A stretch of 58,149 bases of DNA from Alphaproteobacteria bacterium (GTDB lineage Bacteria; Pseudomonadota; Alphaproteobacteria; CAAHEQ01; UBA3637). Below, one piece after another: positions 1 through 52,703 of this stretch. Within the stretch, counting starts at the first letter, position 1. Each line of letters opens with the position of its first letter. Location of the stretch: NCBI GenBank assembly GCA_045655105.1, contig JAZOOQ010000014.1, positions 1-58,149 on the forward strand, in the 5' to 3' direction. Both the position numbers and the translations under genes were made by a program. Below the pieces are notes generated by a model. That model worked only from the letters and a program-made list of their open reading frames with translations, had not been told where the DNA came from and made no database searches.

Positions 1-2441
1 GCTGATACGTCATCACTGATTACATCATACCCAACGTTAATGCCAACACTTGGTCGGACTTTACCCAAATCCCAAGCGGTTTTTACGCCAGCAATTGCCG
101 TTAAGTAATCGCTTGAGGTGGCTTCAACCGTTGTTCCCAAAGTATCGGTATATCCTTCTTGTTTCACAGTAAGATATCTTAAGCCAACTTCTGGCGTGAT
201 GATAGCGTTTTCAAGCTTGATATCATACCCCGTCATCACTTGAACACCCCAAGAATCAACATCATAGTTAGCTGTACCCACGCTTGATAACACTTGCTTT
301 TGTTCATCATATTGACCGCGACTAAACGTTGTCAATCCACTTAACCACCAAGCGTTTGGTTGATAATGCGCTGAGATAAAGCCTGTGTTCGTATCCACCT
401 CTGTTCGTCGCAAATCTTCTTTTGCTGTTGTTTTGCTTGTGGCATATCCAACGCCAAGCGTTAAGGCGTCTGTGATTTCAGATTGAACGCCCAAGACTGC
501 ACCTTGGCTTCTTGCCTTAAAGCCATCCCCCATCGTGGACTTTGTTTTATCATAAAGCCCTTTAATGAATACTTTAGCACGCGGATTTTCTTCGCCTCCA
601 GAGTGCCCCTTCATGGATCCACCCTTTATTTCACCTCTAATAACTTTACTAATAGCCCCAATATGGTTGTTTGTCAAAGCTTGAGGAGTTGGTTGTTTGC
701 TAGATCCAATGGCTTTTAACGTTTTCTTTGCTTTTGAAATTTCTCCTTGATGAGTGGATTGCAACATTTTTAAAAGGGAACTTTTGGCTTCTTCAAATAG
801 TTTATTTTGAGTTAAAGTATCATTTGATTGATTAATTGCATTAAATATTTCTTGTTCATCAGAATTAAAGGAAACAGAACTTGATTTGTTTGCATCTTCA
901 GCTTTTACAAATATTTTTCCATTTTCTTGTAAGATGAAATCATATAACAAGCTTTCTGTGATTATATCAATAGAGCTTATTTTGCTAATATTATCACTGA
1001 TAATAAAGTCATATTCACCTGTTGTTAATTCATCTGTGACTATAATATCTAATTTATTTCCAGAACCAAAAGAAACTGAATTAGCTTCAATTGTTGAATG
1101 ATTGAGAATAATTTTTAATAAAACATTATTTCCAAAAGAAATAGAGCCATTAGCTTTTATTCCCTTATTTTCAAATATAACCTGACTATTATCTTCAATT
1201 TTTATATCATTTGAAATATGTATAGATCCGTTTCCATGTGTGTTAAATAATGTATTTTCCCCCATATAAATGGATTCAATAGTCATTGGGTTATCAGTTA
1301 AAGATTTTAATGTTAAAGACCCTTTTGAAATTTCAATTTTTTTTGCAGAGGCATCTGTCATTGTTAAATGAGTTAAAGTTGAGCTTCCTTTTTGAATATC
1401 CCATGAGTCATTAGAGGTTGTTTGGTTAGGGATAAATGTTCCTAAAGCATTATTTCCATAAATATTATTTACAGAAACATTCTTAAGGTTTAGTATGGTT
1501 GTTGTAACATTTGCTTGCATGTTGATTTTATCTACTTCAGGATAATCAATGCCAATTAATCCTCCAGCATAAATATCAGAAGCAAAAATACCACCAGAAA
1601 TATTTATTGTTGATGTTTCAACTTGTGAAACTATTTTATTTTCCTGAGTTATATCATTGCTAAACTCGTATCCAGTTACTAAAACACTTCCACCACCATA
1701 AATATTTTGGTTAAACTGGCCACCAGATATATTTATGGTTGAATTTTTTATAGAGTCAACTAAATCAACATGTTGATCGCAATAAGCTTTTAAAATACTT
1801 CCACCATGTATAAATGAATCAAAAGCTCCGTTTGTTATTGTTAAATTTGCATTGTTAATTTCAAAATCAATTTTGGGAGCGTATGAAACATTATAACCCC
1901 TGTCTTTTATATAGTTCCCAGGGGTAACAACATTGTTATATGATTCTGTGGCTCTTCCCCATTCATCATCAAGAGGATAATCATCGTTATATGTTCCGCC
2001 ATTAATAACCAAATTTGTTTCTTCTGTAATTATTTTTAAACGGGTATTATCTGGAACAGGATTAGATTTAAAGCCATTTGCATGTCGGCTTCCGCCAACA
2101 ACTTCGCCAGAAACTGTAACATTATTTAAATTAGTGTTTATAGAGTCAAATTCATAAGTAAAATCACCCGTAGCATAACTTTGTGTAAATTGAGTATAAT
2201 TACCACCAATAATTCGGCCATAATTTGCATTGTCTGATACATTTAATGTGATGGATGTTTTTGTTTCATCAACATCTGTGACTGCACCATTAATACCACC
2301 ATAGAGATTAGCTGCATATAATTTTGAAGAACTAAAAAATAAAGGGCTTAAAATTGCTAAATTTATAAGCATGCATTTTTTTAAAATGTTTAAATATCGT
2401 TTTTTGAGCTCTTTAAGAGTGGTGCGTGATGAATGAAACAT
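1..2441 (-). CDS. Autotransporter (type Va): extended signal peptide, Gly-rich beta-helix-like passenger, C-terminal beta-barrel; 3' end beyond the window; not in the ORF track
   Basis: ATG at 2441 with GGAGG SD at 2448-2452. N-terminus MFHSSRTTLKELKKRYLNILKKCMLINLAILSPLFFSSSKLYA. Passenger repeats such as ISGGQFNQNIYGGGS and ISGGIFASDIYAGG. The same frame at the window edge gives barrel strands (TPEVGLRY, VRPSVGINVGYDVISDD). At least 813 codons; both ends were hand-translated, and the middle is inferred open because the track reports no stop-terminated ORF here. Confidence 0.9.
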   Translation of the reverse strand, partial: MFHSSRTTLKELKKRYLNILKKCMLINLAILSPLFFSSSKLYAANLYGGINGAVTDVDETKTSITLNVSDNANYGRIIGGNYTQFTQSYATGDFTYEFDSINTNLNNVTVSGEVVGGSRHANGFKSNPVPDNTRLKIITEETNLVINGGTYNDDYPLDDEWGRATESYNNVVTPGNYIKDRGYNVSYAPKIDFEINNANLTITNGAFDSFIHGGSILKAYCDQHVDLVDSIKNSTINISGGQFNQNIYGGGSVLVTGYEFSNDITQENKIVSQVETSTINISGGIFASDIYAGGLIGIDYPEVDKINMQANVTTTILNLKNVSVNNIYGNNALGTFIPNQTTSNDSWDIQKGSSTLTHLTMTDASAKKIEISKGSLTLKSLTDNPMTIESIYMGENTLFNTHGNGSIHISNDIKIEDNSQVIFENKGIKANGSISFGNNVLLKIILNHSTIEANSVSFGSGNKLDIIVTDELTTGEYDFIISDNISKISSIDIITESLLYDFILQENGKIFVKAEDANKSSSVSFNSDEQEIFNAINQSNDTLTQNKLFEEAKSSLLKMLQSTHQGEISKAKKTLKAIGSSKQPTPQALTNNHIGAISKVIRGEIKGGSMKGHSGGEENPRAKVFIKGLYDKTKSTMGDGFKARSQGAVLGVQSEITDALTLGVGYATSKTTAKEDLRRTEVDTNTGFISAHYQPNAWWLSGLTTFSRGQYDEQKQVLSSVGTANYDVDSWGVQVMTGYDIKLENAIITPEVGLRYLTVKQEGYTDTLGTTVEATSSDYLTAIAGVKTAWDLGKVRPSVGINVGYDVISDDVS

Positions 2442-2669
2442 GGTGTGCCTCCTGAAAAATAAATTAAGATAATTTTATCCCTTTGTTAATGTTAAAAGAG
2501 GTAATTTTAAAAACACAATAATTGTTTTATATCCTAAAGTTCCCCCATTTATACTTTAATTATAGCATATGTTTCTATGTTTTGTATTGAAAAAAATTTT
2601 AAAATATATTTTTTTTATAATTTTTTGTTTAATATAAATCTTTTATCAAAACTCGAAAATATTTAAAAT

Positions 2670-2701
2670 AAAAAAATCCCCTCTTGAAGAAGAGGGGATT
2701 T
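2670..2701 (-). terminator. Intrinsic terminator of the OmpA-family gene
   Basis: AAATCCCCTCTT-gaag-AAGAGGGGATTT stem; the A-tract reads as a U-tract on the minus strand. Confidence 0.8.
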
Positions 2702-2722
2702 GTCTTATCAATGAAATTAAAA

Positions 2723-3367
2723 TTAATTTTTATTGATTAAGAAGATTTCAACGCGTCTATTTTGCTCTCTTCCTTGTGCTGTTGCATTTGATGCAATTGG
2801 ATTTTGAGGGCCAAGGCCATCTGTGATGATTCTGTCAGCTGAAACCCCTTGCAATCTTAAATAGTTGGAAACAGCGTTGGCTCTGCGCAATGAAAGAGTG
2901 TTATTGTAAGCAGCTGATCCTGTGTTATCCGTGTAACCCACGATTTGAACCATTGTTTTGTTATATTCTTTGATAACTTTGGCAATGGAATTGAGGGTAG
3001 GGGTAAATCCTGGTTGAATGGTGGCTTCATTTGTGCCAAATGTAATGTTTCCTGGCATAATGAGTTGAACTTGACCATTTTGTGAAACAACTTGAACACC
3101 TGTTCCAACCAATTCTTGGCGCAATTTTTTAGCTTGGGCATCCATATAAGCGCCTGTTCCAACGCCAACAAGTGCTCCAGCACCAGCCCCAATGAGAGCG
3201 CCTTTTTTACCGCCGACTAATGCACCGATACCTGCACCAGCGGCTGTGCCGATTCCTGTTCCCCATGCTGTTTTGGAAACTTGACTTTCACCAGTATATG
3301 GATTTGTGGCGCAAGCTGATAAAAACGAGGCTAAAACAAGAGAAAGAGTTGCTTTTTTTATATTCAT
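2723..3367 (-). CDS. OmpA-family lipoprotein with glycine zipper (YiaD-like)
   Basis: Lipobox LSAC; GAGIGALVGG zipper; OmpA_C motifs GYTDNTG, NNTLSLRRA, GREQNRRVEI. Confidence 0.92.
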   Translation of the reverse strand: MNIKKATLSLVLASFLSACATNPYTGESQVSKTAWGTGIGTAAGAGIGALVGGKKGALIGAGAGALVGVGTGAYMDAQAKKLRQELVGTGVQVVSQNGQVQLIMPGNITFGTNEATIQPGFTPTLNSIAKVIKEYNKTMVQIVGYTDNTGSAAYNNTLSLRRANAVSNYLRLQGVSADRIITDGLGPQNPIASNATAQGREQNRRVEIFLINKN

Positions 3368-3400
3368 TTTTCTATCCTTTCTAATAAAATATGACTTAAG

Positions 3401-4489
3401 TTAAAAAATTTCTTTTTTAAGTTGTTCTCTATATTGATCCAAAGAAATCAATACGGGTTTTTTATTTTTTTGTTTTTTAGTTACTGTATGCCAAAATGTC
3501 CACCCATTGCAAGAAATAATTCCTTGTAAAGAAGCGGCAACTTGATGGATTGAGCCGTGATGAGTGCCAGAATGTATGGTGCCATCTGCTCTGATAATGG
3601 CTGAAAATTTTTGTTTAATATCAAAAATTTTTTGACCAGGTTTTAAAAGCCCATGCTCAAGTAAAGATCCAAAAGGTATTTTAGGTTCCGCTTTTTTAGG
3701 TTGAATAGGGTCGAATATGTGGCATTCAGAAGAAGGGCGTATACAGGCCAATCTTTTTTTTGCATATTTAATATAGGTTTCATCCTTTTCAATGCCAATA
3801 TATCTGCGGCCAAGTTTTTTGGCAACAGCGCCTGTTGTTCCAGTTCCAAAAAAAGGATCTAAAACAATATCGCCTGGGTTGGTAGATGCTAATAAAATAC
3901 GATAGAGAAGGCATTCTGGTTTTTGAGTGGTATGAACTTTTTTCCCAGCTTCGTTTTTCAATCGTTCTGGCCCGTTACAAATTGGCAACAACCAGTCAGA
4001 TCGCATTTGAATATCGTCATTAAAGGCTTTCATGCTTTCATAATTGAATGTATATTTCGCTTTTTCTGATTTTGCGCACCAAAGAAGCGTTTCATGTGCA
4101 TTAGCAAAGCGTGTTCCTTTAAAATTAGGCATTGGGTTTGTTTTAACCCAAACGATATCATTTAAAATCCAAAATTTTAAATTTTGTAAATGATATCCAA
4201 CCCTATAAATATTATGATAGGAACCAATAATCCAAATGGTTCCATTTTCTTTTAAAATACGTTTAGCTTCTGTTATCCAATTGAGTGTAAAAGAATCATA
4301 AGCATCAAAACTATCAAATTTATCCCAATCATCTGTGACTGCGGCAACATGAGTAGCATCTGGACGCAACAAATTACTTCCAAGTTGCATATTATAAGGC
4401 GGATCAGCAAAGATAACATCCACAGAGTTATCTGGCATTTTTTTCATAACTTCGATGCAGTCGCCTTTAATAATAGTGTTTGTTCTCAT
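3401..4489 (-). CDS. ccrM: Cell-cycle-regulated DNA adenine methyltransferase (beta class, GANTC)
   Basis: DPPY, PMPNFKGTRFANAHETLLW, HTTQKP, DPFFGTGTT and C-terminal GSIHQV...CNGWTFW domain. Start moved to ATG 4489, behind a GGGAGA SD. Confidence 0.9.
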   Translation of the reverse strand: MRTNTIIKGDCIEVMKKMPDNSVDVIFADPPYNMQLGSNLLRPDATHVAAVTDDWDKFDSFDAYDSFTLNWITEAKRILKENGTIWIIGSYHNIYRVGYHLQNLKFWILNDIVWVKTNPMPNFKGTRFANAHETLLWCAKSEKAKYTFNYESMKAFNDDIQMRSDWLLPICNGPERLKNEAGKKVHTTQKPECLLYRILLASTNPGDIVLDPFFGTGTTGAVAKKLGRRYIGIEKDETYIKYAKKRLACIRPSSECHIFDPIQPKKAEPKIPFGSLLEHGLLKPGQKIFDIKQKFSAIIRADGTIHSGTHHGSIHQVAASLQGIISCNGWTFWHTVTKKQKNKKPVLISLDQYREQLKKEIF

Positions 4490-46560: not shown

Positions 46561-48750
46561 ATGGTAAAAGAGGTTGTTAATCTCGAAAAATTAAATTTGT
46601 TATCTGAAAAAGCAGGTATTTGGCTTAATTTTTGGGATCGTGGAACAAATACTCTTTATGAAGCAGATACTCTTTCTAAGCAAACGATTTTAAAAAGTTT
46701 GGGATATAAAGCTGATACAAATAAAGAAATTGAGGCTTCTTTAAAAAAAATTAAACAAGATGAATATGCTTATTTAATTTCAAAAACGATTGTTGTGCGC
46801 TTAACTGAATCAGAGGATACAATTATTCCCATTTATCTTAAAAAGGAATTAGAAAATGAAACTTTGATTTGGCGCATTAAAACGAGTGAAGGTGAAGAAT
46901 TTTTTGATGAAGTGCCACTTTCATTATTGCCAACGATTCAAGAAGATGAGATTGATGGAGAAGTTTATATTCAAAAAGAATTAAGTTTAATGCTTGAGTT
47001 AGAAATGGGCTATCATTCTTTAAGTGTTCAAATAAAAAAGAAAAAAGAAACTTCATCATTAATTATTGTTCCAGATACTTGTTATATGAATGAAGCATTG
47101 GCTGAGGATAAAAAAGTTTTTGGATATCCTGTTCAATTATATGCTGTTCGATCCAAAAGAAATTGGGGTATTGGTGATTTTAAAGATTTAGAAGGATTAA
47201 TTGATGTTGCTATTAAAACAGGGGCTTCTTTTATTGGAGTGAATCCATTATCCGCTCTTTTTCAAGATAATCCAGATGACGCAAGTCCTTATTTCCCATG
47301 CTCGAGATTGTTTTTAAATCCAATTTATATTGATGTTGAAGGTGTTGCGGAACGAGAAAATTATGTTCAATTTCAACGTTGGTTCTCGTATCCTTCTATT
47401 CAAAGACTTTTAAAAATGGCGCGTCGCGGTAAAACGGTTGATTATCATGCGGTTTTGGGTTTAAAGAAGAGTGCATTTAAAATTTTATATAAAAGATTTA
47501 AGGAGCTTCATTTTGATTTTAATGGGAATGCTTTGACTCAACGGGGAAAAGATTTTAATGCGTTTTTGAAAGAAAAAGGTAAAGCTCTTCAAGATTTTGC
47601 AGTCTTTCAAGTGCTAAGAGATAAAGCTGCTTTAAATAAAACATCAATGATGTGGCGTGAATGGGAAAAGTTTTTTCAAAATCCTTCTTCAAAAGAGCTC
47701 AAAGAATTTATTAAAGAAAATGAAACCGATATTTATAATATTTACTATCAACAATTTATTGCTTTTGAACAATTAGATAAAGTGATTCAAAAAGCAAAAG
47801 CTTTACCATTGGGGCTTTATACGGATATGCCTGTTGGTGTGAGCGATAATTCGGCGGAGGTATGGTCAGATCAAGTTTCATTTATGACAGGGGTAACAAC
47901 GGGTGCACCACCAGATGCCTTTAATCAAAAAGGGCAAGATTGGTCTTTGGCGCCATTTAATCCAAAAGTTCTTCACAAAACGGGATATAAAGCGTTTATA
48001 AATGTGTTAAGAAGTGTAATGAAGGGAGCAGGGGCTGTTCGAATTGATCATGCCTTTGGATTAATGCGCCTTTATTTAAGAGTTCAAGGGGCAACAGGGG
48101 CTTATTTAACTTTCCCATTTAAAGAATTAACAGGGATTTTAGCGCTTGAAAGTCACTTAAACAAAACGGTTGTTATTGCTGAAGATTTGGGAACTGCGCC
48201 AGATGGCTTTTCAAATGAAATGATTAAATTGAATGCTTTTTCATTTAAAATTATGCATTTTGAACGCGATTGGAATGGTTTTATTGCGCCAGAGCACTAT
48301 CCAACTAATTCTTTAATTTCAACGGGAACTCATGATTTGCCTTCTTATACAGGGTTTTATAAAGAGTTAGATTTAGAGCTTGCTAAAAAGATGAAAACCA
48401 TTTCTTTAGAGCAATATACGCACCATAAAGAAAACAGAAAAACAGAAAAAGAATTATTCTTAAAGGCTTTTGAACAACAAGGTTTTGAGATTAAAATGGC
48501 TCAAAAAGAAGAAAAAGAGGTTCCTGCTTGGTTTATTCCATCTGTTTATAAATATTTATCTTTGACAAATAGTAAAATTTTGCTTATAAGACCGGAAGAC
48601 ATTTTTGAAATGGATGAGCAGTTTAATTTGCCTGGAACTTATATGGAATATCCAAATTGGCGCCATAAATTGCCTGTATATCTTGAAGAAATGTTGCAAG
48701 ATAAAAGATTAAAGGATATCGTTCGTATTGTAAAAAAACAAAGAGATTAG
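46561..48750 (+). CDS. malQ: 4-alpha-glucanotransferase
   Basis: WGIGDF, GAPPDAF..GQDW, RIDHAFG, AEDLG, GTHDLP, NLPGT...NWR. Confidence 0.96.
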   Translation: MVKEVVNLEKLNLLSEKAGIWLNFWDRGTNTLYEADTLSKQTILKSLGYKADTNKEIEASLKKIKQDEYAYLISKTIVVRLTESEDTIIPIYLKKELENETLIWRIKTSEGEEFFDEVPLSLLPTIQEDEIDGEVYIQKELSLMLELEMGYHSLSVQIKKKKETSSLIIVPDTCYMNEALAEDKKVFGYPVQLYAVRSKRNWGIGDFKDLEGLIDVAIKTGASFIGVNPLSALFQDNPDDASPYFPCSRLFLNPIYIDVEGVAERENYVQFQRWFSYPSIQRLLKMARRGKTVDYHAVLGLKKSAFKILYKRFKELHFDFNGNALTQRGKDFNAFLKEKGKALQDFAVFQVLRDKAALNKTSMMWREWEKFFQNPSSKELKEFIKENETDIYNIYYQQFIAFEQLDKVIQKAKALPLGLYTDMPVGVSDNSAEVWSDQVSFMTGVTTGAPPDAFNQKGQDWSLAPFNPKVLHKTGYKAFINVLRSVMKGAGAVRIDHAFGLMRLYLRVQGATGAYLTFPFKELTGILALESHLNKTVVIAEDLGTAPDGFSNEMIKLNAFSFKIMHFERDWNGFIAPEHYPTNSLISTGTHDLPSYTGFYKELDLELAKKMKTISLEQYTHHKENRKTEKELFLKAFEQQGFEIKMAQKEEKEVPAWFIPSVYKYLSLTNSKILLIRPEDIFEMDEQFNLPGTYMEYPNWRHKLPVYLEEMLQDKRLKDIVRIVKKQRD

Positions 48751-49502: not shown

Positions 49503-50774
49503 TTGACGAATACATTGGTTTTATTGCCGTATTTAAAACAAGAAACGGATATAAGAACGCCTAAAGCAAGGCTTGAAGAAGTTGCCAGTTTAACAAAGGC
49601 TATTGAATTAAATGTGATTGAAAGTGCGCTTGTTCCTTTAAAAGAAATTAAAGCGAATGCATATATTGGGAAAGGCGTTATTGAAAATTATATTGATTTT
49701 ATTAAAGAAAATGAAATTGATCTGGTTATTTTAGCTTGTAAATTATCTCCACTTCAACAAAGAAACCTTGAAAAAGCATGGAATACAAAAGTTATTGATA
49801 AGACGGCATTGATTTTAGAAATTTTTGGTAAACGAGCGCGCACAAAAGAAGGTGTTCTTCAAGTTGAATTAGCGCATTTAACTTATGCGAGATCTCGTTT
49901 GGTTCGATCATGGACTCACCTTGAACGACAACGCGGTGGTTCCGGGTTCTTGGGAGGGCCAGGTGAAACGCAGATTGAGCTTGACCGAAGATTAATTGAT
50001 GAAGATATCATCAAAATTAAAAAAGAATTAGAGGCAGTGAAAAAAACAAGATATCTGCATAGAGCTGCCCGCCAAAAAGTGCCGTTTCCAATTGTTGCCC
50101 TGGTGGGATATACCAATGCTGGAAAATCCACTTTGTTTAATAAATTAACCCAAGCAAATGTGATGGCAAAAGATATGTTGTTTGCAACACTAGATCCAAC
50201 AATGCGCAAAATTAAATTGCCGTCAGGGCAGGTGGTAATTTTATCTGATACAGTGGGATTTATTTCTGATTTGCCAACAGAATTGATTATGGCTTTTAGG
50301 GCAACGCTTGAAGAAGTGTTAGATGCAGATGTGATCGTTCATGTTAGGGATTATTTTCATGATGATTCAACGGCTCAACGTAAAGATGTTGAGGCGGTTT
50401 TATCTGATTTAGGTCTTCATGATGAAGTTGAAGAAGGTCTGATTGAGGCTTTAAATAAAATGGATCTTTATGATGAAGATGATCGAAAAATGATTTTAGA
50501 ACAAAAGAAACGCCGCCCAAAGGAATGTCCAATTTGTGCTGAAACAGGCGAGGGGTTTGATAAGCTTTTAAATTGCATTGAAGAAGCGTTGAATAAAGAA
50601 GCTAAAGAAGTTGAACTTAAAATACCGGTTACAGATGGAAAGGCGTTGGCGCAAATTTATCAAAAAGCTCAAGTGATAGAGCGAAAAGATTTGCAACGAT
50701 ATATAAAGTTAAAGGTTAAAATTAAAGAAAGTGAACTTTTTTATTTTGAAGAGTTTATGAAAGGCGAAAAATGA
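49503..50774 (+). CDS. hflX: GTPase HflX (TTG start)
   Basis: LQVELA, GGPGETQIELDRR, GYTNAGKST, LFATLDPT, DTVGFI, NKMD. Confidence 0.97.
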   Translation: MTNTLVLLPYLKQETDIRTPKARLEEVASLTKAIELNVIESALVPLKEIKANAYIGKGVIENYIDFIKENEIDLVILACKLSPLQQRNLEKAWNTKVIDKTALILEIFGKRARTKEGVLQVELAHLTYARSRLVRSWTHLERQRGGSGFLGGPGETQIELDRRLIDEDIIKIKKELEAVKKTRYLHRAARQKVPFPIVALVGYTNAGKSTLFNKLTQANVMAKDMLFATLDPTMRKIKLPSGQVVILSDTVGFISDLPTELIMAFRATLEEVLDADVIVHVRDYFHDDSTAQRKDVEAVLSDLGLHDEVEEGLIEALNKMDLYDEDDRKMILEQKKRRPKECPICAETGEGFDKLLNCIEEALNKEAKEVELKIPVTDGKALAQIYQKAQVIERKDLQRYIKLKVKIKESELFYFEEFMKGEK

Positions 50775-51094
50775 GCAAACTTTTTGAAAGAAATGTTGAA
50801 GATTTTGTTTGCGCCGTTTGTGGGCAAGAAGTTGAAGGCAATGGATATACCAACCACTGCCCAAAATGTTTATCTTCTTTGCATGTGGATATTAATCCAG
50901 GGGATAGGGCATCAACTTGTCATGGAATAATGTATGCTGTTGGGTATGAAATCAAAAATGGTGCAGAATTTATTTTGCATGAATGTTCAAAATGTGAATT
51001 TCAGCGCAAAAACAAAGTTTCTCCAAAAGATTCAAGAAAAGCCTTGATTGCATTATCTTCTGGAACATTTAATCCATTAGAATTAAAAAAATAA
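50771..51094 (+). CDS. RNHCP-domain zinc-ribbon protein
   Basis: FVCAVCG, TNHCPKCLSSLHVD..PGDRAS.C.G.M, HECSKC. Confidence 0.88.
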   Translation: MSKLFERNVEDFVCAVCGQEVEGNGYTNHCPKCLSSLHVDINPGDRASTCHGIMYAVGYEIKNGAEFILHECSKCEFQRKNKVSPKDSRKALIALSSGTFNPLELKK

Positions 51095-51097
51095 ATT

Positions 51098-51126
51098 AAA
51101 AACCCTGCTTGGAGCAGGGCTTTTTT
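51098..51126 (+). terminator. Terminator after the glgB...RNHCP run; left copy of a 22-bp direct repeat
   Basis: CCCTGCTT-g-GAGCAGGG region followed by CTTTTTT. Confidence 0.8.
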
Positions 51127-51193
51127 ACAACAAGATTTTTCATCAAATACTTTTCTGTATAAAAGGATTTTTATTTGAGGATTAAAAAAAATA

Positions 51194-51222
51194 TTGAACT
51201 CAAAATATCTTTATGATAAACT
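51194..51222 (+). promoter_or_regulatory. Sigma70-type promoter with extended -10
   Basis: TTGAAC-N17-TAAACT with TG at 51214-51215; predicted start near 51228. Confidence 0.65.
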
Positions 51223-51226
51223 GAAG

Positions 51227-51436
51227 CCTAGATTTAATTTTGTAGAAAGAGATTAAATCTAGGGCGTAGAAACCCTTTGTACAAGTAGTCGTTTAAGCAT
51301 AGCGACTAAAATAAGTATGCCGACTTTCGTCTGATGGACGGATGTCGGTGAATAAGGTTTTGGCCAAATAAGCCGAGCCGTCAACTTGTACACGGTTTTC
51401 TAACATCCGCCCGCCTTTTAAAGGTGGGTTTTGTTT
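51227..51436 (+). ncRNA. Structured RNA leader resembling phage P1 C4 / P4 CI antisense RNA with its upstream target boxes, ending in a terminator
   Basis: 12-bp hairpin 51227-51263 with loop GTAGAAA; second GTAGAAA 51266-51272; TGTACAAGT 51278-51286. Closing stem CGGATGT (51339-45)/ACATCCG (51403-09) encloses ACTTGTACA (51384-92) and TTTCTA (51397-402), the complements of those boxes. Terminator at 51410-51436. Confidence 0.6.
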
Positions 51437-51459
51437 AACACAATTATTAGGAGAGATGT

Positions 51460-51636
51460 ATGAAAAAAGTGTTATTATTTTCAAGTTTGATTTTGTTTTC
51501 AATTATGTTGACTTCTTTTGCTCAGGCAGGGACCGTTCATGTTAAGGGTTATCATAGACAAGATGGAACATATGTTCAACCGCATACAAGAACTGCTCCA
51601 GATGGGATTAAATGGAATAATAAGTCCAATTGGTAG
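51460..51636 (+). CDS. 58-aa secreted small protein (below the ORF-track size range)
   Basis: AGGAGA SD at 51449-51454. MKKVLLFSSLILFSIMLTSFAQA|GTVHVKGYHRQDGTYVQPHTRTAPDGIKWNNKSNW*: Sec signal with AQA cleavage site. Terminator immediately after the stop. Confidence 0.85.
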   Translation: MKKVLLFSSLILFSIMLTSFAQAGTVHVKGYHRQDGTYVQPHTRTAPDGIKWNNKSNW

Positions 51637-51638
51637 TG

Positions 51639-51667
51639 AAAAAAGCCCTGCAGGGAGCAGGGCTTTT
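51639..51667. terminator. Bidirectional terminator (small gene / metK); right copy of the direct repeat
   Basis: AAAAGCCCTGC-aggga-GCAGGGCTTTT. Confidence 0.85.
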
Positions 51668-51689
51668 ATCTTTAAAATAAATCAAATTT

Positions 51690-52703
51690 CTATAACTCAG
51701 CAAAAACAGGGCCTGTTTTGCAAAGTTTTGAAAAAATTGGTTGTCTTAAATTCAATTTTTCAATAATTTCAGATGGTTTTAAATCAACAGAAATATTTTC
51801 AAGTTTAAAAATGCCATCTTTAACAGTTTTCACTAAAGCGCTTGGTAATTCTGCTTTTCCAATGCAAGAAGAAAGATAAACAAAACATTCATCATTATCT
51901 TTCAAATACTCTTTTGCCAATTTTCTGGCATATAAGTTAAGCGTTAAGTCAGCTTTGCTTGGATCTTTTGTCCATGGGCTTCCACCACCAATGGCACATG
52001 AAGTGGAATAAAAATCGCAAGCAAGTTTTCGCCCCGTAATACCACAATCGGCAATAGAGGAGTGATAAGTATAAGCGCCCGTTCCATTGATAATAAGTTG
52101 TTTTGGTGTTTGGCCAAGTGTTTCAATCACAAAGTTTGTTAAATCTTCATGCTCAATCATTGGAATGGCAACAATGGCTGTTAAAATCGTTTCATCTTCA
52201 TCCAAAGTGATTTGAGTTTTAATATCTAATCCCAAGTGTTTGGAATTTTTAGCTTTTTGATATAAGGCATTATTGAGCTTGCGTGCCAAAACCAAATCTT
52301 TTGGCATTAAGTCATCACCTTGCGATGCATAACCAACGAAAACGCCTTGATCGCCCCAACCATCTTGAGTCACGCCTTGTAAAATTTCGCTTGATTGAAT
52401 GCCAATTAAATCAATTACTTTTAACTTGTTGATATCAATGGCTTTTTCTTTCCAGATAGAAGCATATTCTTCATCATATCCAATTTCACGCAGCGCTTGT
52501 TTAACAATTTCATTTATATCATCAATTTTAATATAACCATTGACTTCGCCACCTAAAATAACGGTGTTATCTTTAATCATAACTTCAACGGCATATTTTA
52601 AAGAAGGGTCTTGTTGAATAAGCGTGTCAAGTAAATAAGAACTGATAAAATCGGCAACCTTATCTGGATGACCGATGGATACATATTCTGCAGTTTTAAG
52701 CAT
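51690..52703 (-). CDS. metK: S-adenosylmethionine synthetase, short divergent type
   Basis: GHPDKVAD, GWGDQG, DIKTQ, DCGITGRK, GGGSPWTKDPSKAD. Confidence 0.88.
   Translation of the reverse strand: MLKTAEYVSIGHPDKVADFISSYLLDTLIQQDPSLKYAVEVMIKDNTVILGGEVNGYIKIDDINEIVKQALREIGYDEEYASIWKEKAIDINKLKVIDLIGIQSSEILQGVTQDGWGDQGVFVGYASQGDDLMPKDLVLARKLNNALYQKAKNSKHLGLDIKTQITLDEDETILTAIVAIPMIEHEDLTNFVIETLGQTPKQLIINGTGAYTYHSSIADCGITGRKLACDFYSTSCAIGGGSPWTKDPSKADLTLNLYARKLAKEYLKDNDECFVYLSSCIGKAELPSALVKTVKDGIFKLENISVDLKPSEIIEKLNLRQPIFSKLCKTGPVFAEL

Follow-up and report, generated by a model that had tools for sequence, protein, structure and literature searches.

The closest described relatives of the element treated here come from phages. 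The CI RNA of the satellite phage P4 (seqA/seqC) is a processed leader RNA that pairs with boxes in its own transcript family and silences the genes downstream, the outcome being premature termination. The immI region of phages P1 and P7 (Rfam families C4, RF01695, and c4-a1b1, RF03163; clan CL00128) has the P51 promoters followed by a looped box, a single-stranded box and then a three-helix RNA, an arrangement that recurs at the locus described here: a predicted leader RNA with its promoter at positions 51194-51436 of a 58,149-nucleotide (nt) stretch of DNA from an Alphaproteobacteria bacterium (assembly GCA_045655105.1, contig JAZOOQ010000014.1), hereafter the window. In the annotated P1 record the promoters are followed by a1, which sits in a hairpin loop, then by b1, c4 and the a2/b2 pair at the icd ribosome site, with icd/ant last; as at our locus, variable loops with compensating boxes make up a specificity code.

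A second relative, sRNA-Xcc1 (RF02221), occurs in integron cassettes, islands and phages of Proteobacteria; in the parts of the cited sources that bear on it, this RNA is reported at several copies per genome, beside C4 and isrK matches in Xylella (PMC12189769, Table 4), and, in APSE phages, ahead of an accessory gene (10.1101/2020.03.17.996009). C4 with its a1/b1 boxes is likewise already in print (Weinberg et al. 2010, PMC2864571), as are multi-copy chromosomal C4-like small RNAs (sRNAs), of which the portions of Weiss et al. (2016, PMC5320573) drawn on here describe 21 copies, as Group 1, in Acinetobacter baumannii AB5075. These share with our family their many chromosomal copies, a conserved upstream hairpin region, variability in the specificity loop and a proposed co-option of a phage fold.

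As read from the sequence, the unit in the window is a promoter-to-terminator leader RNA of ~205 nt with a C4-like module in its 3' half, and it appears to be one copy of a many-copy family of ~175-base folded RNAs in small-genome gut Alphaproteobacteria. Guided by covariation and folding models, we lean, if only modestly, towards a C4-derived or C4-like multi-partner leader switch that may exert locus-specific negative feedback. What is new is the formal evidence for two covarying alternative pairings and the self-locked energetics as compared with P1, together with the pairing to the ribosome site, the survey of copy numbers, the quantified diversification and the orthogonality of copies inside one genome.

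Covarying pairings and turnover of the inner helix

The structured core of the leader (51260-51436, + strand) ends 24 nt before the ATG of a 58-amino-acid (aa) open reading frame (ORF) with a signal peptide. Folding of the + strand from 51225 to 51436 gives a minimum free energy (MFE) of -82.1 kcal/mol against -48.8 +/- 4.0 kcal/mol for shuffled sequences (z = -8.37, with 0/200 shuffles equal to it), the - strand of the same interval reaching z = -4.28. Both upstream boxes are occupied in this MFE structure, where they form with their complements one long-range helix that encloses three hairpins; we refer to it as the ‘locked’ fold. It is preferred in the full-length RNA by 10.7-22.9 kcal/mol in 27/27 copies.

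A preliminary description of this DNA, made from the letters alone, had proposed that the boxes pair with exact complements downstream, and comparison among copies bears this out. From an alignment of 27 copies (A1) we built a covariance model (R1; 174 positions, 51 pairs), and divergent members aligned to R1 supplied a further set (A3; 38 distinct rows). The cognate duplex between inner box and loop, 7-13 base pairs (bp) long, is present in 27/27 aligned copies, with sequences that are unrelated from copy to copy, and 9/9 inner-helix pairs have changed on both sides. Pair 36:296 of this helix, for example, is AU in 18, UA in 17, CG in 12 and GC in 12 of 65 distinct sequences, and 52 distinct loop sequences were counted among 59 copies. 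The outer box exists in four compensated versions (UAGAAA/UUUCUA, UUGAAA/UUUCAA, UUCAAAA/UUUUGAA and UCGAAA/UUUCGA), its pair 10:319 being CG in 37 cases and AU in 25. Taken over the whole locked fold, the 65 distinct sequences on R1 have 94.7% of cells paired (82.3% for shuffles and at most 53.5% for slid partners) and 37/51 pairs changed on both sides, giving a covariation score of 0.382 against 0.159 for shuffles and at most 0.063 for slid partners; the corresponding values for A3 are 92.3% paired, 48/51 pairs changed on both sides and a score of 0.656 vs 0.199. The terminator helix, again in the divergent set, is 96% paired with 7/7 pairs changed on both sides.

Turnover is concentrated in the inner helix, which has changed 6-7 times faster than the remainder of the RNA: 0.219 differences per site vs 0.032 in the 10 copy pairs whose identity outside this helix is 95% or more, and 0.459 vs 0.075 in the 30 for which it is 90-95%. 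One pair with flanks 93% identical yet differs at 0.47 per site in the inner helix. Pairing has kept pace, since cognate box/loop duplexes average -11.75 kcal/mol against -2.98 kcal/mol for non-cognate combinations (n = 692); likewise, the 4x4 duplex matrix of the window's own genome runs from -8.9 to -14.5 on the diagonal and from -0.2 to -2.9 off it, and boxes and loops of copies inside one genome do not cross-pair. In four copies of a related assembly (G013; contigs C10, C25 and C62, loci L031, L033 and L034), two types of inner box are found combined with two types of outer box; strain mixing in that assembly is possible, because two of the four copies sit at both ends of a 4,981-bp contig.

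The central strand of the RNA, GGACGGAUGUCGG, can be drawn in either of two ways: paired with GCCGAC-UUCGUC upstream (the ‘sequestor’ hairpin), or with CAUCCGCCC and GCCGA downstream (the closing stem and first hairpin of the C4-like module). The sequestor (helices 5 + 6), which the preliminary description had placed at 51320-51348 as an alternative hairpin sharing the closing-stem strand, proves to be real and to covary, with 12/12 pairs changed on both sides and 92-95% of cells paired in the divergent set. The module helices are 93.5% paired within the main family, with few two-sided changes; being near-invariant there, they are uninformative about themselves, and divergent members were collected for this reason. 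On A3, an alignment fitted to the other fold, they are 78.2% paired, vs 68.8% for shuffles and at most 48% for slid partners, and 7/9 closing-stem pairs have changed on both sides (for instance GGCAGGAAG/CUUCCUGCC and GACCGGGAG/CUCCCGGUC), with pair 178:325 being CG in 14 and UA in 12 divergent members. As both mutually exclusive partners of the central strand GGACGGAUG covary, the element looks like a switch. Once the boxes are blocked in the model, the sequestor and C4-like states lie within ~2 kcal/mol of one another (-51.0 vs -49.3 kcal/mol in the window copy), and the C4-like closing stem, counted at 6/7 pairs or more, appears in the MFE structure of 4/27 copies.

A third candidate partner lies at the downstream gene. 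The 3' segment of the module (J strand plus closing 3' strand, GGUUUUCNAACAUCCGCC) is complementary to the ribosome-binding region of that gene, the complementarity to the Shine-Dalgarno (SD) region residing in the module 3' strand UUUUCNAACAUCC. Pairs of a 3' segment with its own ribosome site average -11.34 kcal/mol, against -6.19 kcal/mol for a background of 1,095 SD-bearing start regions of the window's own genome, and a free energy of -12 or below is reached by 28/56 members vs 12/1,095 background sites; reversed segments (-6.52), shuffled segments (-6.94) and shuffled sites (-5.83 kcal/mol) served as controls. The pairing covers positions -13 to -1, and divergent members retain the match through two-sided changes (AACUUCC/GGAAGUU, AAGCUCC/GGAGCUU), with a cognate rank of 0.33 (p = 0.003) in that set. 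The equivalent comparison for the inner box (cognate rank 0.45, p = 0.18) gave no copy of it in the 75 nt downstream. Some MFE structures of read-through RNA have the SD enclosed in a helix with the 3' segment, the terminator hairpin standing at its tip, and a partition-function model of 41 members puts SD accessibility at 0.48 for RNA of full length, falling to 0.23 once the boxes are blocked and to 0.26 on cutting at the central-strand GG.

Kinship with C4 and sRNA-Xcc1

Judged by sequence models, the 3' half of the leader is a sub-threshold but specific match to sRNA-Xcc1 and C4. The whole window gave 0 matches to Rfam at gathering scores (GA); with permissive filters, the best match of the window copy was to sRNA-Xcc1, at 33.1 bits (GA 53) over 51336-51420, covering the full model length of 87 positions. 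Run over the 1.58-Mb genome, the same model picks out exactly four main copies at 30.6-33.1 bits, all below the cut-off, and 9/20 related loci scanned score 32.7-39.2 bits. The C4 model finds two other copies in the own genome at 27.8 and 21.9 bits (GA 45), with a best score among relatives of 32.3 bits at one of the 20 loci scanned. A search of the window copy with C4 and c4-a1b1, which the preliminary description had put forward as a check, returned no match at E <= 10, and c4-a1b1 none at E <= 0.1 on the 20 related loci, nor did a model by the name of c4-2 turn up among the matches; the P1 control scored 68.8 bits with C4 and 51 bits with c4-a1b1. The C4-like architecture that had been proposed is thus upheld in its nested layout, its three-helix fold and its sub-threshold Xcc1 and C4 matches, and falls short in that no Rfam gathering score is reached.

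The layout itself follows C4 closely. A closing stem encloses two hairpins, the box-pairing segments being the second loop and the 3' strand, and the upstream boxes, nested as in P1 and the first of them presented in a hairpin loop, are complementary to both segments. P1 naming calls the hairpin loop b' and the 3' strand a', which makes our outer box the counterpart of a1 and our hypervariable inner box that of b1. Where the C4 consensus reads GCCGG-loop-CCGGUuUgCcAAC...CcgCCaCC, the family reads GCCGU-loop-ACGGUUUUCUAAC...CCGCCCACC; a hairpin-loop-hairpin core and the CCGCCaCC tail are common to both.

The differences from P1 are also considerable. The closing stem is 7-10 bp here vs ~18 bp in P1, and the boxes are longer, the inner one forming 7-13 bp as against 7 nt. 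The sequestor hairpin is an addition through which this RNA locks itself, whereas the P1 precursor retains in its MFE structure the c4 fold, with an 18-bp closing stem and a1/b1 unpaired. An intrinsic terminator abuts the module, unlike in P1; and where P1 has a2/b2 downstream, there is here no inner-box copy, the ribosome site instead matching the 3' strand plus the closing strand. The cargo consists of secreted and surface proteins rather than icd/ant, and the family resides in chromosomes, where a genome may carry as many as 14 copies, unlike P1/P7.

With sRNA-Xcc1, the best Rfam match, the distance is one of score (30.6-39.2 bits vs the cut-off of 53) and of hosts, which are here animal-gut Alphaproteobacteria; the 5' half with its boxes and sequestor is present here and does not feature in the portions of the sources on Xcc1 cited above. 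The A. baumannii RNAs reach the Rfam C4 motif and have processing supported by RNA-seq, whereas our family is sub-threshold; upstream-loop self-pairing, an alternative fold and coupling to a downstream ribosome site are features of the present family that the relevant portions of PMC5320573 do not describe. Within P1 itself, the isrK model gives a sub-cut-off match of 35.1 bits at 48217-48311 (1381-1475 of locus L206), overlapping both the c4-a1b1 match and a terminator-like hairpin between a1b1 and c4; this overlap suggests that isrK, c4-a1b1, C4 and sRNA-Xcc1 may be parts of one modular system. The family would descend from, or converge on, the phage C4/sRNA-Xcc1 antisense-RNA design.

A proposed switch and its rivals

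We propose the following scheme for how the leader might work. While the 3' strand is tied up by the boxes, the ribosome site on a read-through transcript would remain open. A cognate C4-like RNA might take up the boxes in trans, or processing at the GGA with which the closing stem begins might cut them away; in either case the 3' strand would be free to close that site. The 5' boxes and the ribosome site would, in other words, compete for one 3' strand, and both routes may give negative feedback that is specific to the locus, much as with P1 c4 and P4 CI. The terminator is probably always active, so that the ORF would be made only from read-through. Fast compensated turnover of the inner box might serve to keep same-genome copies from cross-talk and any trans contacts private. 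A stronger version, whereby each copy is a privately addressed RNA lock whose processed RNA acts in trans only on leaders with its own box pair, we regard as doubtful.

Saying this, several points weigh against the proposed switch. Its states are modelled from covariation and equilibrium folding; the locked-fold alignments were fitted to the locked fold itself, most named members came from a pattern scan that demanded the conserved 3' block, and the background for the ribosome-site comparison comes from one genome only. Complementarity to the site could also be inherited with the module, in which case the 56 members are not independent, and outer-box and site variants match only loosely, the cognate J strand beating the majority strand in 26/49 cases. 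The window copy itself behaves differently from the average member: its duplex with 51437-51470 is weak (-10.4 kcal/mol), its SD is unpaired in the read-through MFE structure, and its SD accessibility runs the opposite way, at 0.63 in the full-length RNA, 0.86 with the boxes blocked and 0.86 when processed. As the pairing is weak in this copy, the ribosome-closing step is least certain there. Finally, the own 1.58-Mb genome holds no second site with both boxes in the leader's tight arrangement, which leaves a trans role resting only on orthogonality and fast turnover. The both-box sites found for the window copy and the copy on contig C16 were the leader itself and its trivial antisense, plus two loosely spaced 8-mer matches for the latter; the A/T-rich boxes of the copies on C50 and C66 have many 8-mer matches, as chance predicts.

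That missing second site bears equally on the idea of a free-standing trans-acting sRNA, a processed C4-like form of ~77 nt that would repress phages, satellites or other host mRNAs, with the boxes as decoy or maturation aid. We think this unlikely, for all that the fold is C4/Xcc1-like and the rapid compensated change of the loop recalls P1/P7 heteroimmunity: the fold that buries the loops is more stable by 11-23 kcal/mol, and 78/88 members are tightly coupled to a co-oriented ORF. Also in its favour is the start of the closing stem, GGA in 40/89 members and GGG in 16/89, given that the consulted portions of PMC5320573 report RNase P to act at GGW in C4 and in the processed A. baumannii C4-like sRNAs. 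A link to phages was also sought in sequence collections. The phage collection yielded a single match, of 154.8 bits, on a 9.3-kb faecal contig deposited as ‘UNVERIFIED: Bacteriophage sp.’ (MT836653.1, locus L208), where positions 576-3443 hold the family RNA before an 890-aa autotransporter and a DUF3768 protein, a resolvase and a large serine recombinase lie nearby. The contig places one member in nominally viral company; its gene content of recombinases and autotransporter, with no phage structural genes found on it, speaks the other way, as do two exact-pattern scans of viral contigs, in which none of the 4 + 7 loci matched R1 (0/11 were family members) and the number of hits was about that estimated by chance for such pattern lengths.

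The arrangement of four segments with two covarying alternatives would also suit a classical transcription attenuator, with sequestor and terminator as the OFF state and the closing stem as antiterminator in the ON state; such a role suggests itself because the extension GG(A/G)C...GCCC overlaps the first three C residues of the terminator, an overlap that reads as 4-5 nt in two divergent members. The preliminary description had indeed envisaged an attenuator, but competition between closing stem and terminator is not supported for the window copy by equilibrium models, in which its terminator pairs at a probability of 1.00 whether the 5' half is there or not. As the terminator forms in every modelled state, we do not adopt the antiterminator reading for this copy. 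Among 37 members the mean probability is 0.95 at full length and 0.79 after 5' truncation, and the stem extension forms in 0/27 copies with the boxes blocked; a few divergent members do fall to 0.11-0.5, their bottom terminator pairs dropping without the 5' half, for example from 1.00 to 0.11, 0.36 and 0.44. These models are of equilibrium only and silent on kinetics, and we consider attenuation quite improbable. Nor do they support, in the window copy, the premature termination that is the outcome of P4 CI. A static structured RNA, in which the locked fold alone is functional and the C4-like alternative and ribosome-site match are ancestral leftovers, would fit the locked fold being the MFE structure by a wide margin in 27/27 copies, as well as module helices that hardly vary in the main family. 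It sits poorly with the covariation of the closing stem in divergent members (the 7/9 pairs noted above) and with the compensated changes that keep the 3' strand matched to the ribosome site, and we rate it as very unlikely.

Three other candidates were dropped: a metabolite riboswitch, in view of the excessive variety of downstream genes and a hypervariable helix; a type I toxin-antitoxin pair, given downstream proteins of 58 to 890 aa, enzymes included; and a DNA-level repeat or miniature inverted-repeat transposable element, on account of strand-specific G-U pairs, a promoter and terminator, and a fixed orientation before genes.

Distribution, surroundings and significance

Besides the four strong copies that BLAST finds in the 1.58-Mb assembly (29 significant copies once 40 related genomes are added), the own genome has a fifth, divergent copy on contig C59:61938-62104 (+) (locus L174; 52 bits with R1). 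Its closing stem now reads GGCAGGAAG/CUUCCUGCC, and the lipoprotein gene next to it has a ribosome site altered to match, GGAAGUU. Further copies with co-varying box pairs, for which the preliminary description had advised looking, are therefore present. Across the order, R1 found the RNA in 66/80 genomes; its matches at E <= 0.001 number ~296 in all, and one genome can hold as many as 14 copies. Across the class, sampled at one genome per genus, 11/151 genomes matched, nine of them from other families and all eleven of 0.9-2.5 Mb. A pattern scan of named assemblies led to 80 fetched loci, of which 47 match R1, mostly from ‘Alphaproteobacteria bacterium’ metagenome-assembled genomes of ruminant and human guts, other titles being ‘Acetobacter sp. 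CAG:977’, ‘uncultured Azospirillum sp.’ and ‘uncultured Rickettsiales bacterium’; these names would correspond to the GTDB order RF32. The plasmid collection gave no family match.

Five R1-positive loci (L039, L059, L085, L088 and L115) carry titles of Eubacteriales or [Ruminococcus] gnavus; as all remaining members are alphaproteobacterial, these are probably mislabelled or mixed bins. Many copies in four assemblies (G000, G003, G007 and G013; loci L003, L004, L019, L021 and L032-L034) lie within a few hundred bases of contig ends, which suggests that assembly from short reads is probably interrupted by the family and its paralogous lipoprotein genes, and that the copy numbers are probably undercounts.

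What follows the leader is nearly always a gene in the same direction. A co-oriented SD and ORF lie within 90 nt in 78/88 members, at a median gap of 26 nt (89 distinct members), and of these 78 ORFs 48 have signal-peptide-like starts and 25 a lipobox, several others being prepilin-like. Downstream proteins across the family comprise secreted proteins, lipoproteins, autotransporters, a DNA methylase, an ankyrin protein, GT2 and a helix-turn-helix protein; for most of them the Pfam search returned no family, those it could name being the methylase, the ankyrin protein, GT2 and the helix-turn-helix protein.

On rereading of 50700-52100, each motif of the preliminary description (promoter, boxes, stems, loop, terminator and ribosome-binding site) was found where it had been placed (Table 1). 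The promoter is missing from the listing of a consensus scan, with a score of 8/12; a -10-like motif occurs in 76/88 testable family members, at a median of 36 nt 5' of the core, and a hairpin of -8 kcal/mol or below lies within 48 nt 5' of the core in 48/88 members. The second GTAGAAA is a minority feature, an extra 6-mer of the own box being present in 8/69 members vs ~1.7 expected from non-cognate 6-mers.

Table 1. Features of the leader RNA and its immediate neighbours in the window.
Feature	Positions	Strand	Remarks
RNHCP-domain protein	50771-51094	+	107 aa, Cys-rich (E = 3e-27), directly upstream; two-way terminator 51098-51124 at its end
Putative promoter	51194-51222	+	-35 TTGAAC 51194-51199, 17-nt spacer, TG 51214-15, -10 TAAACT 51217-51222; read by eye
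5' terminal hairpin	51225-51263	+	From the MFE structure; sequence varies among copies; loop carries second GTAGAAA, 51242-51248
Outer box GUAGAAA (51266-51272) in small hairpin GGG/CCC	51262-51275	+	Corresponds to a1 of P1
Inner hypervariable box TGTACAAGT	51278-51286	+	Corresponds to b1 of P1
Hairpin P3 (AGUCGUU...AGCGACU)	51287-51307	+	7/7 pairs changed on both sides
Sequestor hairpin	51319-51349	+	From the MFE structure; central strand with upstream GCCGAC-UUCGUC
C4/sRNA-Xcc1-like module	51336-51412	+	Closing stem GGACGGAUGU/ACAUCCGCCC, hairpins UCGG...CCGA and GCCGU-loop-ACGGU; from Rfam alignments and whole-genome scans
Closing stem, as DNA	CGGATGT 51339-51345 / ACATCCG 51403-51409	+	
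Loop ACTTGTACA, inner-box complement	51384-51392	+	Inside GCCGT/ACGGT
TTTCTA, outer-box complement	51397-51402	+	
3' segment GGUUUUCUAACAUCCGCCC	51394-51412	+	Three possible partners: outer box plus 5' GGG; central strand (closing stem); ribosome-binding region of the ORF
Intrinsic terminator	51409-51436	+	9-bp stem and 3-nt loop (hairpin 51409-51429), then TTTTGTTT
SD and 58-aa ORF with signal peptide	51449-51636	+	SD AGGAG 51449-51453, ATG 51460; no Pfam family match
S-adenosylmethionine synthetase (MetK)	51690-52703	-	337 aa; converges on the small ORF

The window copy has as neighbours malQ, a thioesterase, hflX, the RNHCP protein, metK and a MATE pump. The absence of a visible prophage, remarked on from the outset, is borne out by the roughly 9 kb read around the unit, which hold no phage gene, and neither the neighbours nor the downstream genes form a prophage immunity region with an antirepressor as in P1/P7. 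The three domains of the 337-aa MetK are matched at E values of 2.5e-22, 1.1e-9 and 3e-19, the central match covering 70/120 profile positions.

The small-genome gut Alphaproteobacteria are uncultured, and a narrow search of the literature on C4 antisense sRNAs of Alphaproteobacteria found nothing on their riboregulation. Our findings would place in these genomes a phage C4 design that has been rebuilt as a cis-linked, self-locking leader, one that precedes a large proportion of their secreted- and surface-protein genes, and they suggest that the Rfam entries C4, c4-a1b1, isrK and sRNA-Xcc1 may be fragments of one wider modular system. With three covarying alternative partners for one strand, the family may lend itself to the study of RNA switches in which partners number more than two, as well as of a helix under fast compensated change. 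If each copy were indeed a privately addressed lock, every surface-protein gene would have an RNA feedback loop of its own, the locks being kept distinct by diversifying selection; a genome of 1-1.5 Mb could then switch up to 14 envelope genes independently, and the whole would amount to an RNA-only analogue of phase variation, derived from a domesticated phage immunity module.

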